Source of the DNA: Leptolyngbya sp. BL-A-14
GTDB taxonomy: Bacteria; Cyanobacteriota; Cyanobacteriia; Leptolyngbyales; Leptolyngbyaceae
Direction of reading: 5' to 3'
Assembly: GCA_041937185.1 (NCBI GenBank)
Contig: CP166621.1
Location: 2,388,571-2,452,570 of the forward strand
DNA length: 64,000 bases
Shown here: in pieces, positions 5,546 to 21,552 of the stretch
Layout of the letters: each line of letters begins with the position of its first letter
Numbering within the stretch: the stretch's first letter is position 1
Notes under the pieces: generated by a model
Told to the model about the DNA's origin: nothing
Database searches by the model: none
The model's input: the letters and a program-made list of their open reading frames with translations, nothing else
Program-made: the position numbers and the translations under genes

Positions 5546-6334
5546 TTGAGCACACATTCCGTGTTGATGAGTTCGTTGAGTTGGGTCGCTTACCAGGAGC
5601 GTTTGCGGGAAGACGGCTTGGTGCTGCTGCTGCCCTGTGGTGCGTTAGAGCAGCATGGACCGCATTTACCATTGGGGACGGATGCCTTGCTGAGTGCGGC
5701 GATCGCCCAAGCGGTTGCCGAAAAAGTCAATGGGTTGGTGGCACCCACGCTTAGCTATGGCTATAAATCGCAACCCAAGTCAGGTGGTGGGCAGCACTTT
5801 CCAGGTACAACTAGCCTGGATGGGCAAAGCTTGAGCCAGATTACCCGCGATGTCATTCGTGAGTTTGCCCGTCATGGGGTCAAAAATCTGGTCATTGTCG
5901 ATGGCCATTACGAGAATCAGTGGTTCCTGACCGAAGGCATCGATCTCGCTCTGCGTGAGTTGGGCACTGACAATCCACTTCGAATTATGCGCTTGGAATA
6001 TTGGGACTTTTGCACCGAAGATACGTTAAGCCATATCTTTCCTGATGGCTTTCCAGGGTTTGCACTGGAACATGCGGCTGTCATCGAAACGTCACTCATG
6101 CTGCACTTCTACCCCGATCTAGTGGCGCTTGATCAGCTACCCAACGACACAGCAGCCAGCTTTCCACCCTACGACATGTATCCGCCCCGCGTTGAATGGG
6201 TTCCCGCATCAGGCGTCCTCTCGTCCGCTAAAGGAGCCAGCGCTGCAAAGGGTGTCTTGATGGCAGAGCAGATCGCCAATAGCATTGCGGCGGCGATCCA
6301 GCATGAATTTAGTCAGCCGGGAACGGGGCGATAG
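5546..6334 (+). CDS. Creatininase-family amidohydrolase
   Basis: LLLPCGALEQHGPHLPLGTDA metal-binding signature of the creatininase/MftE family; about 260 aa. Confidence 0.75.
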   Translation: MSTHSVLMSSLSWVAYQERLREDGLVLLLPCGALEQHGPHLPLGTDALLSAAIAQAVAEKVNGLVAPTLSYGYKSQPKSGGGQHFPGTTSLDGQSLSQITRDVIREFARHGVKNLVIVDGHYENQWFLTEGIDLALRELGTDNPLRIMRLEYWDFCTEDTLSHIFPDGFPGFALEHAAVIETSLMLHFYPDLVALDQLPNDTAASFPPYDMYPPRVEWVPASGVLSSAKGASAAKGVLMAEQIANSIAAAIQHEFSQPGTGR

Positions 6335-6407
6335 AGGCAGAAGGCAGAGGGTAGAGGGCAGAAGGCAGAAGGCAGAAGGCAGAGGGCAGAGGGCAAAGGG
6401 CAGAAGG
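6334..6407. repeat. Heptamer tandem array (GGCAGAA/GGCAGAG, about 10 units)
   Basis: ggcagaaggcagagggtagagggcagaaggcagaaggcagaaggcagagggcagagggcaaagggcagaagg. Confidence 0.85.
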
Positions 6408-6573
6408 TGTGAGTGGACTGGTGCAAAGTGTTTGCTGCCCATGACCCGCTTCGTGTTCTTTATTTACTGCTTTCTGTAGAATATTTTCTCCTTTATGCTG
6501 TATTGGTTGTTACATTCTTAAACTATTGCTGAATGTAACAATTTGGCGTTAGCTCATAAGGACTGCAGGACTG

Positions 6574-7635
6574 ATGAACTTCTCTAAGTCACCCCGTTGG
6601 ACTCGTCGGCAAGCGTTATGGATGATGACTGGCGCGATCGCCGGTGCCAGTGTGCATGCGTGTGCAAAACCGCCTGAAGCACCTTCTGCGCAGTCGTCTT
6701 CGTCTCCAGCAGCTTCGACTGGGTCTGGAGCAAGCACCGCATCAATCGGCATCACTACCTGGATTGGCAACACGCCCCTATACATCGCTCAGGAAAAGGG
6801 TTTCTTTAAAGACCTGGGGCTAACGTTATCGATTAAGGTATTTGATACGGTTGCCCAGGCGTTTCCTGCTTTTACATCAGGGCAGCTTGATGGGTTAGCA
6901 CCCGTGACATCTGAAGCGGTCACGCTGGCATCCAAAGGGGTCGATTTCAAAATTGTGACAGTGGAAGACACGTCTCTTGGAGCAGATGTCATCCTGGCGC
7001 GCAACAATATTAAGAGCATTAAGGACTTCAAAGGCAAAAAGATTGCGGTCGAACTGGGTGGCATTGGTCATTTCTTCGTGCTGCAAATTTTGGCAGAAGC
7101 GGGGTTGACTGGGAAGGATGTCACGCTAGTCAATACGCCTCCCGATGCAGCAGCAGCGGCGTTTCAGGCAGGCAAAGCCGAAATTGCCTACTCTTATTCG
7201 CCCTTTAGCGACCAGGCGATCGCGGCACAAAAAGATGGACGCGTTATCTATAGCTCCAAGCAAATGCCGACGGCGATCGCGGATCTTTACATCTTCAACA
7301 CAAAATTTGTGCAAGCGAATCCTAAAGCCATTACAGCGTTTGTCGAAGGCAACCTCAAGGGTGTGGAGTTTCTGAAGACCAACCGTAAAGAAGGCCTGGA
7401 AATTGGTGCTGCCAAACTCAAAATTAAGCCTGAAGAACTGGATCAGCAGCTTAAAGGCATTCGCATTCCCGATAAGGCTACAAACGTGGCAATGTTAGGT
7501 GATCCCAACAGTGATCAATATCTATTGAAGCCAATGACAAAACTGGCAGCCTTTTTGAAAGATCAGGGCCAAATTCAAACTGCACCTGATCTCACGAAAG
7601 TGCTTGAACCACAGTACGTCACGGCAATGAAGTAG
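6574..7635 (+). CDS. ABC-transporter substrate-binding protein, NMT1/SsuA/TauA family, Tat signal (paralogue)
   Basis: About 75% identical to 4293..5345 along its whole length (SPRWTRRQALWMMTGAIAGASVHACA leader). Confidence 0.75.
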   Translation: MNFSKSPRWTRRQALWMMTGAIAGASVHACAKPPEAPSAQSSSSPAASTGSGASTASIGITTWIGNTPLYIAQEKGFFKDLGLTLSIKVFDTVAQAFPAFTSGQLDGLAPVTSEAVTLASKGVDFKIVTVEDTSLGADVILARNNIKSIKDFKGKKIAVELGGIGHFFVLQILAEAGLTGKDVTLVNTPPDAAAAAFQAGKAEIAYSYSPFSDQAIAAQKDGRVIYSSKQMPTAIADLYIFNTKFVQANPKAITAFVEGNLKGVEFLKTNRKEGLEIGAAKLKIKPEELDQQLKGIRIPDKATNVAMLGDPNSDQYLLKPMTKLAAFLKDQGQIQTAPDLTKVLEPQYVTAMK

Positions 7636-17670: not shown

Positions 17671-18972
17671 ATGACTACACCCGCGATCGCTTCGGTTCAA
17701 CCGCTTCTCCATCAAGCTGCTTCTCTCCTCGTCTATCGGTCATTGCTCAGCGATCCGATTGGACAGGCGTTTTTGGCACTGCTGCAAGCGATTCGTCACG
17801 CTGAGCGTAATACGGCTGCCGAAAATACCGAGTGTTTGCTGGCGTATGGTGATTGGTTTAGCGCGTTGGCTGAGGGGAAGCAAAGCTGGCAGGATCATCT
17901 ACTCACCCAACTGTTGCATGCGGACAATCCGTTTACCCAACAGGCACAGCACAGAGCGTTGAGTGAACTGCCTCCCGCATTGGTGGAAGCGGCTCGCCAT
18001 GATCTTCAAGTGGTGCAGCAATTGTATGCCTATGGCAGTGAGCAATTGAGCCGATCAATTAAGGTGGCGGCACATCTGGCAGTTGCTCCCGTTGTCTGGC
18101 AGTGCGAACCAATCGCAAGTTTGGAGTGGTTGCGATCGACTGTACAAGCCACAGCCAATTGGGGCGATGCATTGGAACCGTTAGCGGCCCACTATCACAA
18201 GCAGGGTGTGGGGCTATTCGCTCAATACAAAGCGTTTCGCTGGCAGGCAGGTGAATTGCGGGGCATTGCCTATCCCGATCGCGTGCAGGTTACCGATCTG
18301 GTGGGCTATGAGTCCCAAAAAGAAGCACTGCTGAAGAATACGACGTTTTTGCTCAAGGGCTACCCGGCACTGCACGTATTGCTCTACGGCAGTCGGGGTT
18401 CGGGCAAATCGTCGCTGGTGAAGGGATTGCTGCACCGCTATGGGGAGGATGGTCTGCGCCTGATTGAGGTCGCCAAAGCAGAACTAACAGAGTTGCCTGC
18501 GATCGTCGAACGGTTACGGAATCTGCCGCAGAAGTTCATTATTTTTGTCGATGATCTGTCGTTTGAGGAAGATGAGGATGCCTTTAAAGCGTTGAAGGTT
18601 GTGCTGGAGGGCAATCTAACGGCACGATCGCAAAACGTAGTGGTGTATGCCACCTCCAATCGACGGCATCTGATCCGCGAATTTTTTGGCGATCGTCCCC
18701 GTCCCAGCGATGGCGATGAAGTCCACGCCTGGGATACGGTGCAGGAGAAGCTTTCGTTTAGCGATCGCTTTGGCTTAACCCTCACCTTTGAACCCGCTGA
18801 CCAAAAAACCTATTTGCAAATCATTCACCACCTCGCCAAGCAAGCAGGAATTCAGCTTGATTCGGAGGCTCTGGAGTATCAGGCACTGCAATGGGCAACG
18901 CGACATAATGGGCGATCGGGCCGTAGCGCGAGGCAATTTATTGATTTTCTCACCGCTGAACTGGCTAGATAA
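17671..18972 (+). CDS. AAA-like ATP-binding protein, DUF815 family
   Basis: LLYGSRGSGKSS Walker A, FIIFVDDLSFEEDE Walker B, sensor NRRHLI. Confidence 0.7.
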   Translation: MTTPAIASVQPLLHQAASLLVYRSLLSDPIGQAFLALLQAIRHAERNTAAENTECLLAYGDWFSALAEGKQSWQDHLLTQLLHADNPFTQQAQHRALSELPPALVEAARHDLQVVQQLYAYGSEQLSRSIKVAAHLAVAPVVWQCEPIASLEWLRSTVQATANWGDALEPLAAHYHKQGVGLFAQYKAFRWQAGELRGIAYPDRVQVTDLVGYESQKEALLKNTTFLLKGYPALHVLLYGSRGSGKSSLVKGLLHRYGEDGLRLIEVAKAELTELPAIVERLRNLPQKFIIFVDDLSFEEDEDAFKALKVVLEGNLTARSQNVVVYATSNRRHLIREFFGDRPRPSDGDEVHAWDTVQEKLSFSDRFGLTLTFEPADQKTYLQIIHHLAKQAGIQLDSEALEYQALQWATRHNGRSGRSARQFIDFLTAELAR

Positions 18973-19057
18973 GGAGTGGGATATGGAGGTAGAAGAGGCA
19001 GTTTCAGTCCCTGGTCTACAATGAAAGCAAGCAGATCCTAGCCTTAGGAGACGATTT

Positions 19058-19330
19058 ATGCCCTCCCCCAAATTTAGTGCAGAGGAAATTGCTCAGCGCG
19101 GCAAAGCCCTCTATGAGAAAGGCATCCGCGCCAACGTTGAAACAGTAGAAAATATCGGCAAAATTATCTCGATTAATATCGAAACTGGCGAATACGCAAT
19201 TGGTAATGATTTGGTCGAAACCAGCCTCCGATTACAAGCTAAACAAGCTGACGCATCACTTTGGGGAGAAAGAATAGGCTTTAACGCTGTTTATGCAGTG
19301 GGTGGCACACTGACTAGGACTTTGCAGTGA
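19058..19330 (+). CDS. Small hypothetical protein, partner of a retropepsin-like protease
   Basis: 90 aa. Its stop TGA overlaps the GTG start of the next gene (19327). Confidence 0.5.
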   Translation: MPSPKFSAEEIAQRGKALYEKGIRANVETVENIGKIISINIETGEYAIGNDLVETSLRLQAKQADASLWGERIGFNAVYAVGGTLTRTLQ

Positions 19331-19695
19331 TACATGGGAGTGTGGTTGGGCTTCAGGCTCGAATAGGTGTGTTGCTTCTTGCTCAAGACCGTTCAGGAAT
19401 AGAAATTGAATGTGTGGTTGATACAGGGTTTGAGGGCTTCTTAACGTTGCCTCCCTCAGTTGTTGTTGATCTTGGCTTACCATATCTCATTAATATCAAC
19501 GCTAACCTTGCTAATGATGCTAATGTCGAAACCGGCGTTTACTTGGCAACAGTTGTATGGAATGGTGTCGAGCGTAAGATCGCAGTTTTAGCAATGGGAC
19601 GTCGTCCACTCATTGGAACTGCACTGCTCGCGGACTATCATCTCAATGTAGATTTCTGTGAGGGCGGCACAGTACTGATTGATGAAATTCTGTAG
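19327..19695 (+). CDS. Retropepsin-like (clan AA) aspartic protease
   Basis: VVDTGFEGFLTLP, a D-T/S-G catalytic motif in a 122-aa protein, typical of bacterial retropepsin-like domains. Confidence 0.65.
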   Translation: MIHGSVVGLQARIGVLLLAQDRSGIEIECVVDTGFEGFLTLPPSVVVDLGLPYLININANLANDANVETGVYLATVVWNGVERKIAVLAMGRRPLIGTALLADYHLNVDFCEGGTVLIDEIL

Positions 19696-19755
19696 ATTTG
19701 AAGTGAACAACTTGGCACAATGGCGGTTGGGCTGTAACACCATAAGCGGTTTCGG

Positions 19756-20583
19756 TTAGTCCGCCATACCAGAATCGTTAGCTTGTCTTGTCTCACATAT
19801 GGCCTCATTGCTTGTAAGATAGCCTGAATTAAAATAGTGACGCATTTCTGTACTCATATACGGTAACCAACTTACATAAGAGGTTATGTCGTCAATCATA
19901 TGAATAAATAGCCATCCTACTGTACTTTCCTGAAGAATAGAAGGGTAGAATGTTGAACCCGGAATATCGTCTCCATTGATAGTCTTGCCTGGTTGCCGCA
20001 TAAGTTTAATCATGTACTTCTTGTTGACAATTAAATTTAGCGGATAGCGATTGAGCGGAATATTAGAATTACTGTTGTAGAAGTCAGCGATGTGATTTAG
20101 GCAGGTTTCATATTGCACGCCATCATATGCAAAGATAAATAATGATGGATGTTTAGATATGAATGTATCAAACGCATTGGGTCTTAATGCTTTGAAGGTT
20201 AATACCTGAGGAGAAAACTGCGGAATACTGGCAAGGTTGCTGAGACAGTCCACAATACTTGCTTTGTCAAGAAAGCTTTTTACGGTGATTGCTGCCGCAA
20301 CGCTCTCTGCTGTAATGAAATTCCGTGCATTTTCTTCAAATCTTATTGATATATCGTTTGATACAATAATATCCATTTGCCCTGATTCTATGTCTCCAAG
20401 ACCGATAATTTGTCCTCCCAAGTAAGCGGAGAGCCTTTTGGGTAAATGCTTATGTAGAAATAATTCTAAAAACGTTTCTCTATTGAAGCCAATGTCTGGC
20501 CTATGATAACTAGTGCTAGCAAGTTGAGCATCTACGGCCATCTTGTCAGCAATTAGGTTGAAGTATCTTTGAAGCCGACTCAT
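19756..20583 (-). CDS. Hypothetical protein (AT-rich island)
   Basis: 275-aa ORF at about 38-40% GC with no overlapping competitor. No family recognised with confidence. Confidence 0.4.
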   Translation of the reverse strand: MSRLQRYFNLIADKMAVDAQLASTSYHRPDIGFNRETFLELFLHKHLPKRLSAYLGGQIIGLGDIESGQMDIIVSNDISIRFEENARNFITAESVAAAITVKSFLDKASIVDCLSNLASIPQFSPQVLTFKALRPNAFDTFISKHPSLFIFAYDGVQYETCLNHIADFYNSNSNIPLNRYPLNLIVNKKYMIKLMRQPGKTINGDDIPGSTFYPSILQESTVGWLFIHMIDDITSYVSWLPYMSTEMRHYFNSGYLTSNEAICETRQANDSGMAD

Positions 20584-20709
20584 TAACTTATTCCAAAATT
20601 AAACATCAATTTGAGCGTGGCGAGAAAGGCTACGATTTGGTGTCAATTGTTCCTTTGAATAAAAGTGCAATGTCTCTGCAGAGATAGGCTAATAACTTAT
20701 TAAGCAGCC

Positions 20710-21552
20710 CTAACTAACCCATTTTGCAAGAGTGTAGAGTAAAGGCGCAATCAGTAAGGCAGGTAAGAAAGACGCGACTTTGACTTTGGCGATGTCGAGT
20801 AAATTCAAGCCGATGCCTAAAATCATGAGACCGCCCACACCGGAGGTAATCAGGACGTGGGGATTGGTGGTGGGGTTTGCTAGAAGTTGAGGGAGTAGCC
20901 CCGCTAGCAGTGAGAGTCCACCCTGATAGAGCAGAATCATGAGGCTGGAGAAGCCAACGCCGATGCCGTAGCTGCTGGTGAGGGCGATCGCGGCCAGTCC
21001 ATCCATCGTCGCTTTAATGCTCAAAACCGTATTGTCTCCAGCAATGCCATTATTGAGACTGCCAATAATCGCCATCGGGCCAATGCAAAACAGCAAGCTA
21101 GCGGCAACAAACCCTTCGGTGAAGCTGCCTTCCCCTTTGAAGCGTGCTTTGAGCCATTCGCCTAGCGTGTAGAGACGTTCTTCCAGTTGCAGGCTCTCTC
21201 CCAGCAACCCGCCAATCACGATCGCCAGCAGCGCCAGGATAATGCCATCCACTCGTCCAGCCTGGGCTTTGAGCAAGCTACTCGCCATTGTGACGCCTAG
21301 AAAGAGCGTCACCAGCCCAACCCCCTGAGTGATCACCCGTTGCATCCCTAAGGGCAAGCTTTTTCGCAGGAGCACCCCGCAGAGCGTACCAAACAAGATT
21401 GTGGCGACGTTGATCCAGGTGCCGCTCGTTTTTGCCCACAAATCGAGGGGGACGATCGGGGTAGAAGCCGTTTCCAGTAAGAGAAGCATCAATAAAATGT
21501 ATGAACGGTCATCCCCACAGGATAGTGTAATGACCAGAAAGCTTAAAAGCAC
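20710..21552 (-). CDS. DUF554 family inner-membrane protein (YqgA-like)
   Basis: GTWINVATILFGTLCGVLL start signature and multiple TM helices. The true start may be internal (non-ATG). Confidence 0.6.
   Translation of the reverse strand: MLLSFLVITLSCGDDRSYILLMLLLLETASTPIVPLDLWAKTSGTWINVATILFGTLCGVLLRKSLPLGMQRVITQGVGLVTLFLGVTMASSLLKAQAGRVDGIILALLAIVIGGLLGESLQLEERLYTLGEWLKARFKGEGSFTEGFVAASLLFCIGPMAIIGSLNNGIAGDNTVLSIKATMDGLAAIALTSSYGIGVGFSSLMILLYQGGLSLLAGLLPQLLANPTTNPHVLITSGVGGLMILGIGLNLLDIAKVKVASFLPALLIAPLLYTLAKWVS

Follow-up and report, generated by a model that had tools for sequence, protein, structure and literature searches.

A mobile two-gene cassette in Leptolyngbya sp. BL-A-14 couples a small partner protein to a retropepsin-like aspartic protease and is a candidate toxin-antitoxin-like module

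The stretch of DNA analyzed here, hereafter called the window, comprises 64,000 nucleotides (nt) of contig CP166621.1 from the cyanobacterium Leptolyngbya sp. BL-A-14 (positions 2,388,571 to 2,452,570 of the forward strand). It contains two small, overlapping genes, the first for a 90-amino-acid (aa) protein, which we call the partner, and the second for a 122-aa retropepsin-like aspartic protease (Table 1; all coordinates are those of the window). We find that these two genes constitute a self-contained, horizontally mobile bicistronic cassette, that the partner gene lies directly upstream of every intact protease gene for which upstream DNA is available, and that the cassette decays on one side only, namely by loss of the protease. 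The protease family has been catalogued before, although to our knowledge its description as TIGR03698 includes no partner protein; the obligate upstream partner is what the present analysis adds. We propose that the pair is a type II toxin-antitoxin (TA)-like module in which the partner silences the protease by means of its C-terminal tail, a proposal that we judge to stand about an even chance of being correct.

The partner gene precedes every intact protease gene

The pairing was followed from both sides, in about 160 fetched loci overall. Probing with the partner gave 176 confirmed hits among the GTDB species representatives, from which 80 loci were fetched, while probing metagenomes with the protease provided the unbiased direction for judging whether the protease ever stands alone. 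In most of the 80 genome loci, the protease follows immediately 3' of the partner, with a −4 (GTGA, ATGA, or TTGA) or a −1 junction; where a downstream open reading frame (ORF) was present (53 genome loci), the −4 overlap was found in 43 and the −1 overlap in 9 more. The protease-probed metagenomes yielded 53 intact pairs and not a single exception where upstream DNA was present on the contig. The preliminary description of this DNA had suggested looking for co-occurrence of the partner with retropepsin genes and for conservation of the 90-aa gene beside the protease, and both are borne out by the 44 intact pairs from genomes and the 53 from metagenomes. Two candidate partnerless proteases were dropped: the one at locus L126 is an N-terminally truncated remnant that has no start codon before the D-T-G motif, and the one at L157 does have a partner, which is divergent (120 aa) but intact and overlaps the protease gene by ATGA.

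The pair is retained where protease identity has fallen to 34%, as well as in non-cyanobacterial contigs of 61 to 66% GC, where a gene with one, two, or three partner domains is followed by an overlapping gene for a D-T-G-F protease. A single natural fusion, P0309, joins two partner domains to a protease. These tandem partner domains and the P0309 fusion suggest that the partnership is physical and stoichiometric. In the AlphaFold2 (AF2) model of P0309, the domains have a predicted local distance difference test score (pLDDT) of ~90, while that of the linker and tail (residues 169 to 192) is ~30 and the predicted TM-score is 0.45, so that no partner-protease interface can be claimed.

Decay of the pair is one-sided, and orphan partners remain under selection

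Among the partner-probed genome loci, both genes were intact in 44, the partner was intact and the protease absent in 18, and the partner was intact and the protease broken in 14; not one locus held a broken partner next to an intact protease. The protease-probed metagenome loci gave the same picture, with both genes intact in 53, an intact partner with a broken protease in 9, and the converse in none. Protease lesions include frameshifts, stops, deletions, internal insertions, and replacement by IS200/605, and since they differ between loci, at least 15 losses must have been independent. The solo partner loci keep the GTGATACA junction, indicating that the protease was lost secondarily, and paired, degraded, and solo states occur side by side within single orthologous contexts. 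As a rough estimate, the approximately six independent inactivations in the protease-probed set would all have struck the protease with a probability of ~0.04 if each gene were hit in proportion to its length. The orphan partners, about 20 in number, are full length, and their ratio of nonsynonymous to synonymous substitution rates (dN/dS) is 0.18 to 0.25, compared with 0.14 for paired partners. Orphan partners thus remain under purifying selection.

This last observation bears on an alternative in which the protease strictly depends on the partner as its activator, chaperone, or assembly subunit, for folding, dimerization, or substrate recognition, and the pair has a nontoxic regulatory or processing role. 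Such a cofactor would account for the fact that an intact protease was never seen without a partner, for the overlapping genes, natural fusions, and tandem partner domains, and for the strong conservation of both proteins; moreover, the bacterial retropepsins RimB and RloA likewise act in dedicated operons with partners. A pure cofactor, however, should decay once its enzyme is lost, and the persistence of the orphan partners under selection weakens this explanation. A housekeeping role is further opposed by the recurrence of independent losses that affect only the protease, the patchy multicopy distribution, the plasmid and defense-island contexts, and the foreign composition of the pair. On balance, we regard the cofactor explanation as unlikely.

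Two kinds of protease lesion can be described individually. Metagenome loci L107, L112, L115, and L123 have in common an in-frame stop at the codon of the invariant W78 of the protease, next to an intact partner, and represent one pseudogene allele across samples. At L060 (positions 6234 to 7502 of that locus), ORFs resembling tnpA and tnpB of IS200/IS605 take the protease's place right after an intact partner gene, the last codons of which have been replaced.

The cassette is mobile and multicopy

Clustering of the DNA flanking about 112 modules gave 82 upstream and 70 downstream clusters. The cassette recurs in no fewer than 70 to 80 distinct genomic settings. Several assemblies hold at least two copies, and one 406-kb Cyanosarcina contig carries four modules. 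The pair is found on plasmids of Nostoc, Trichormus, and Tolypothrix and lies beside ParDE on the conjugative plasmid pCC7120alpha; the plasmid copy of Anabaena/Nostoc sp. PCC 7120 comprises WP_010999914.1 and WP_010999913.1. Other neighbors include a PIN pair and IS110, one setting is a type I restriction-modification (R-M) locus, and ORFs that by eye resemble HicAB, RelE, and HigA lie near some pairs. The nearest relative of the window pair sits between sugar-metabolism genes. Carriage by phages gave no match in INPHARED or IMG/VR. Two partner-protease pairs can also be neighbors, separated by no more than ~1.5 kb and arranged in tandem or divergently (L111, L124, L134, L151, L170, and L173). 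At L173, where the setting is a type I R-M locus, a complete pair is preceded by a gene for a two-domain partner that lacks its own protease.

The protease belongs to the TIGR03698 family and is predicted to adopt a retropepsin fold

As the preliminary description had recognized, the 122-aa protein carries the signature of a clan AA (D-T-G) aspartic protease. Its match to the NCBIfam model TIGR03698 ("clan_AA_DTGF"; 70.8 bits against a cutoff of 57.35), in which residues 22 to 114 align with profile positions 12 to 106 of 107, identifies it as a member of this family, also called the AF_0612 family. Kinship with the Pfam family PF13975 (gag-asp_proteas) is at clan level only, the score of 13.8 bits lying below the gathering threshold of 28.2. 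Across 22 homologues with 65 to 86% identity, residues D32, G34, F35, G91, P94, L95, and G97 are invariant and T33 is kept in at least 90%, so the catalytic aspartate, whose presence upon alignment had been raised as a check, is retained throughout. D-T-G-F, encoded at 19420 to 19431 in the window, is kept in all intact copies examined, five distant high-GC homologues among them, and the segment G-R-R-P-L-I-G-T-A-L-L is conserved as well. Homologues of the protease fall into 613 clusters; our literature search for TIGR03698 returned no paper and no characterized member.

The fold was assessed indirectly, from the AF2 model of P0309, in which the protease portion shares ~30% identity with the window protease. 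In Foldseek, the top PDB match of this model was the protease of equine infectious anemia virus (EIAV; E = 1.2e-4, TM-score of 0.67, probability of 1.00), and further matches were to the proteases of human immunodeficiency virus type 1 (HIV-1) and human T-lymphotropic virus type 1 (HTLV-1), to Rickettsia APRc, to Ddi1, and to RloA2. This suggests that the window protease has a retropepsin fold. Inspection by eye revealed no signal peptide in this acidic protein, which is presumably cytosolic.

Several known groups share parts of this description. RimB/RloA of Pseudomonas, APRc of Rickettsia, and Lpg0085/DUF785—whose structures the family model also matched in Foldseek—have the same single-domain D-T-G retropepsin fold with an expected homodimer, but they belong to other sequence families than the window protease, and none is mobile or multicopy in the manner of the pair. 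In addition, RloA differs in being secreted, and the operon partners of RimB and RloA (RimK and RloBC) are of the ATP-grasp and transglutaminase-like types, unlike the 90-aa partner. APRc is membrane anchored. The retroviral proteases of HIV-1, EIAV, and HTLV, together with Ddi1, come closest in structure to the protease domain (16 to 20% identity in the P0309 model); unlike the protease studied here, they are released from polyproteins or embedded in multidomain proteins and have no separate small gene, P0309 being only a loose analogue. Finally, the aspartic protease associated with type III CRISPR in Sulfolobales (PADLOC PEPT_D; Asp_prot, Saci_1895) is likewise a retropepsin-domain protein of ~100 aa in a defense context, but the match was marginal (E = 0.038), and no cas gene or cas family was found among the ORFs at 16 to 24 kb or in the Pfam and NCBIfam matches of two flanking genes.

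The partner represents a large, undescribed family with a conserved disordered tail

The 90-aa partner matched nothing in Pfam, NCBIfam, PADLOC, or PHROGs, and a Pfam scan of 47 diverse members returned only scattered chance matches; assignment to PF18929 (DUF5678) was dropped, as just 1 of these 47 members matched, with an E value of 0.086. The family nevertheless comprises 483 clusters at 90% identity, and a profile search returned 1,994 representatives at 50% identity, 505 of them below 1e-10. By these searches, the partner family appears to be large, undescribed, and without a family model. AF2 predicts a folded core of the order alpha-beta-beta-alpha-beta between residues 8 and 72 (pLDDT of 85 to 91), made up of a helix at 8 to 27, strands at 36 to 40 and 46 to 49, a second helix at 52 to 62, and a strand at 68 to 72. 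The C-terminal tail, residues 77 to 90, has a pLDDT below 50 and is predicted to be disordered. Its sequence ERIGFNAVYAVGGTL is nearly invariant in close homologues; G74 and G82 are conserved across the whole family, and the consensus of the tail reads (R)IG(F/Y)xAVYxxGG.

Such a tail would also suit an explanation in which the partner is a substrate or precursor: the protease would cut it within the tail, perhaps near AVY/AVG, and a product would thereby mature or be set free, comparable to the retroviral processing of Gag. Retropepsin cleavage sites are rich in hydrophobic and aromatic residues, as is the conserved, disordered tail, and the fusion of two partner domains with a protease in P0309 resembles a polyprotein. 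Against this speaks the selection on solo partners that have no protease in cis, as does the finding that the tail motif is degenerate in the fusion-bearing lineage itself (P0309 and P0282); genes for export, modification, or immunity were not found nearby in the window. We consider a dedicated substrate quite unlikely, even if the idea overlaps with that of a self-cleaving antitoxin and is therefore partly compatible with a TA-like module.

Profiles of the partner gave only nonsignificant matches to the PDB (ParD, E = 0.27; a portal protein, E = 0.06) and no solved relative. In the ParD match, the partner consensus ETGDYEIGDDLVETSLRL (in the window copy ETGEYAIGNDLVETSLRL, residues 42 to 59) resembles the ribbon-helix-helix (RHH) motif ESGDYKTNSEVIRDGLRL of PDB entry 7ycv; the first half of this stretch of the partner is predicted to be a beta-hairpin and not a helix. 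The idea that an "ETG" hairpin of the partner mimics the D-T-G loop of the protease was dropped by eye, given that diverse members have D-x-x-(T/S)-G in an alpha/beta fold.

A few homologues of the partner carry labels or extensions of their own. The Joint Genome Institute labels of P0015, P0026, P0038, and P0058, "methanogenic corrinoid protein MtbC1" and "predicted ATP-dependent Lon-type protease," look like annotation artifacts, as our family searches back neither name. In P0241 (147 aa), a peptide of the form MT(L/I)EN(L/I)EAE..ALP.DSQ..LLSRLLKHLG, which by eye resembles an addiction-module component, is fused to partner residues 10 to 89. The same type of peptide occurs in L126 (284 to 463 and 448 to 792), upstream of the N-truncated protease remnant, and the two arrangements together suggest recombination between small-gene cassettes. 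P0386, a cluster of 21 members (145 aa), is a partner variant with an N-terminal extension of ~60 aa, YRYHYKIGNKVVHTGITTDPQRREAEH, that looks GIY-YIG-like by eye; at L171 (2501 to 3302), a partner of this type is followed by a D-T-G-F protease, beside which lie a PIN pair and the transposase of an IS110 element.

A toxin-antitoxin-like module as the favored explanation

We favor a TA-like module for the pair because its gene order, 4-nt overlap, putative promoter, mobility, plasmid carriage, one-sided decay, selected orphans, and disordered tail all fit such a module. The protease would be a cytosolic, single-domain enzyme that, by analogy with retropepsins, is active only as a homodimer joining two D-T-G loops, and the partner would be its obligate, most likely stoichiometric inhibitor. 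The folded N-terminal core of the partner would present the disordered tail, to which the protease would bind, possibly with the tail lying in the substrate cleft as a pseudosubstrate. As long as the partner is produced, the protease would be kept silent; upon loss or degradation of the partner, it would cut cellular targets and growth would stop, as in TA or abortive-defense behavior. The protease/inhibitor or TA-like module of the preliminary description agrees with the genomic behavior of the pair, which is mobile, multicopy, and carried on plasmids and loses only its protease; the function itself, from binding and inhibition to toxicity, dimerization, and the part played by the tail, is what we infer.

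The resemblance to type II TA systems such as ParDE, RelBE, MazEF, and HicAB is extensive. These also consist of two small genes, the smaller one first, with a 4-nt overlap and a promoter of their own (putative in our case); they are multicopy, plasmid borne, and patchily distributed, with variable contexts beside TA, R-M, and insertion sequence genes; an "antitoxin" is often found as an orphan, a "toxin" never; and the smaller protein combines a folded core with a disordered C-terminal tail. Two differences stand out: the candidate toxin here has an aspartic protease fold, which was not found among TA toxins in the literature searched, and its partner has no recognized DNA-binding domain.

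A number of observations count against a TA-like module. Family and fold searches recognized no DNA-binding fold in the partner, the RHH match to ParD being nonsignificant, and no clear operator was found, though the promoter region is conserved. Both proteins are acidic, with isoelectric points of 5.4 and 4.4, whereas many TA pairs combine an acidic antitoxin with a basic toxin. Both are also 65 to 86% identical across cyanobacterial orders, which is unusually high for a TA pair. The proposed docking has no structural support, since the AF2 model of P0309 left the tail and linker unplaced. The module is not a PADLOC system, a 2009 survey of type II TA systems makes no mention of aspartic proteases, and our literature searches found neither an aspartic-protease toxin nor any report linking a retropepsin to an antitoxin or an anti-phage function. 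Lastly, the asymmetry of decay would be equally expected if the protease could not fold or function without its partner.

With these points in mind, we consider the pair a candidate new TA or defense variant, in which the protease family is known and the partner family undescribed. A more far-reaching version, in which it would be the founding case of widespread modules whose retropepsin effector is checked by an inhibitor of new fold, with a disordered pseudosubstrate tail plugging the cleft, strikes us as conceivable but somewhat doubtful. If true, retropepsins would have their first specific family of protein inhibitors and prokaryotic conflict systems their first toxin of the aspartic-protease type. 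If the pair is TA-like, it would add aspartic proteases as a new catalytic class to the prokaryotic toxins and defense effectors while supplying a natural protein inhibitor of the retropepsin fold. Should the pair prove not to be TA-like, the strict dependence of the protease on its partner would still define a new heteromeric retropepsin system. In either case, free-standing bacterial retropepsins of the TIGR03698 type, which had no known function, now form part of a defined two-gene unit, and the separate annotations "hypothetical protein" and "clan AA aspartic protease" are recast as one unit that is present in the genetic model PCC 7120.

Layout of the locus

The pair and a convergent 275-aa gene make up a low-GC islet that consists of two abutting inserts (Table 1); the genes flanking it include those for a DUF815 protein, a DUF554 protein, FtsH, and MurD. 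The overlapping stop and start codons noted in the preliminary description can be read directly from the sequence as GTGA. This 4-nt overlap, together with an AGGA located 7 nt before the GTG, suggests that partner and protease are translationally coupled. A programmed −1 frameshift yielding a Gag-Pro-like fusion was dropped, as there is no slippery heptamer ahead of the stop. The NCBI record gives the protease as 117 aa, with its start five codons further downstream (19327 to 19341 in the window). However, residues 1 to 6 of the 122-aa form are conserved, with G4 and V6, both upstream of the 117-aa start, invariant, and the GTGA junction recurs, so that the GTG start and the overlap are better supported.

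Upstream of the partner, a simple −35/−10 scan made no call on TACAAT; distant cassettes have TATAAT at the equivalent position, and an element CTACAATGAAG is found ~36 to 45 nt 5' of the start codon in Nostoc-type cassettes as well. The conservation of TACAAT suggests that the cassette carries its own, putative promoter. At the DNA level, similarity to related cassettes begins at ~19007, 5' of TACAAT, and stops at ~19700.

Table 1. Features of the cassette and its surroundings in the window
Feature	Position	Strand	Basis
90-aa partner gene (candidate inhibitor/antitoxin), ATG start	19058..19330	+	ORF list, sequence
122-aa retropepsin-like aspartic protease gene (candidate toxin/effector), GTG start	19327..19695	+	TIGR03698
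GTGA start/stop overlap of partner and protease, 4 nt	19327..19330	+	Sequence
Catalytic codons GAT ACA GGG (D32-T33-G34)	19420..19428	+	Sequence, alignment
AGGAG, Shine-Dalgarno-like site 7 nt 5' of the partner ATG	19046..19050	+	Sequence
AGGA within the 3' end of the partner gene, 7 nt 5' of the protease GTG	19316..19319	+	Sequence
TACAAT, putative −10 box of the cassette promoter	19017..19022	+	Conserved position among cassettes
275-aa DUF6602 gene, convergent on the pair, independent insert	19756..20583	−	Pfam PF20247, PADLOC
Low-GC islet of two abutting inserts	19007..20677	.	Composition, homology blocks
DUF815 AAA-type ATPase gene, one flank of the islet	17671..18972		Match, 6e-97
DUF554 membrane-protein gene, other flank of the islet	20710..21552		Match, 5e-71

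The GC content at third codon positions (GC3) is 0.42 for the partner, 0.37 for the protease, and 0.36 for the 275-aa gene (overall GC of 0.39), compared with 0.53 to 0.62 for the flanking genes. The foreign composition ascribed earlier to the convergent 275-aa ORF is thus correct, and the pair is compositionally atypical too. Homology at the DNA level falls into two separate blocks, one covering the pair (19007 to 19700) and one covering the DUF6602 gene (19736 to 20677). A scan of the islet for a tRNA gene, flanking repeats, and a terminator gave nothing convincing, and no relative with an empty site that would date the insertions was found when the DUF815 flank was used as a handle.

The convergent DUF6602 gene is a separate insert

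The 275-aa protein, for which the preliminary description saw no recognizable family, does have one: residues 23 to 121 match Pfam PF20247 (DUF6602; 5.9e-16, with 58.7 bits where the cutoff is 27), and residues 3 to 127 match the PADLOC models PD-DExK (1.3e-18) and NucC (2.7e-9). Its relatives form 54 clusters, all with PF20247, and homologues of ~50% identity occur across Chlorobiota, Trichlorobacter, Bordetella, and Eubacteriales. In 20 DUF6602 sequences, D71, D77, E93, and K102 are invariant, which makes them putative catalytic residues, albeit with an atypical spacing between E and K. The N-terminal 125 residues align with models of NucC and Cas-associated PD-DExK nucleases, but this is a rare standalone gene with no CD-NTase (cGAS/DncV-like nucleotidyltransferase) or CRISPR partner nearby, and it is not a NucC orthologue, as only the N-terminal ~125 residues match, about half of the 243- to 244-position profiles. 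Families of cyclases or Cas proteins were absent from the ORFs at 16 to 24 kb, from both flanking genes that were scanned, and from the surroundings of four homologues. A role as a NucC effector of CBASS (cyclic-oligonucleotide-based anti-phage signaling system) or type III CRISPR was rejected on these two grounds.

The adjacency, convergence, and common low GC of the three genes in the window could suggest that partner, protease, and DUF6602 nuclease-like gene form one three-gene system. The 275-aa ORF is, however, not part of the arrangement. None of the 80 related pair loci has a DUF6602 homologue beside the pair, nor does the nearest relative of the window pair; DUF6602 relatives at 90% and at ~50% identity are standalone genes in varied, unrelated contexts without the pair; and the DNA homology blocks are distinct. 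The 275-aa gene is therefore a second, separately acquired single-gene insert in the same variable spot but outside the pair module, and a three-gene system is extremely improbable.

The 275-aa protein may be a single-gene defense nuclease; the literature searched holds only a passing mention of DUF6602. In Trichlorobacter lovleyi (L166, 5001 to 6771), a DUF6602 homologue lies directly upstream of a gene with an Abi_alpha domain and near a Y1 transposase, a context that hints at a location of DUF6602 proteins in defense islands.

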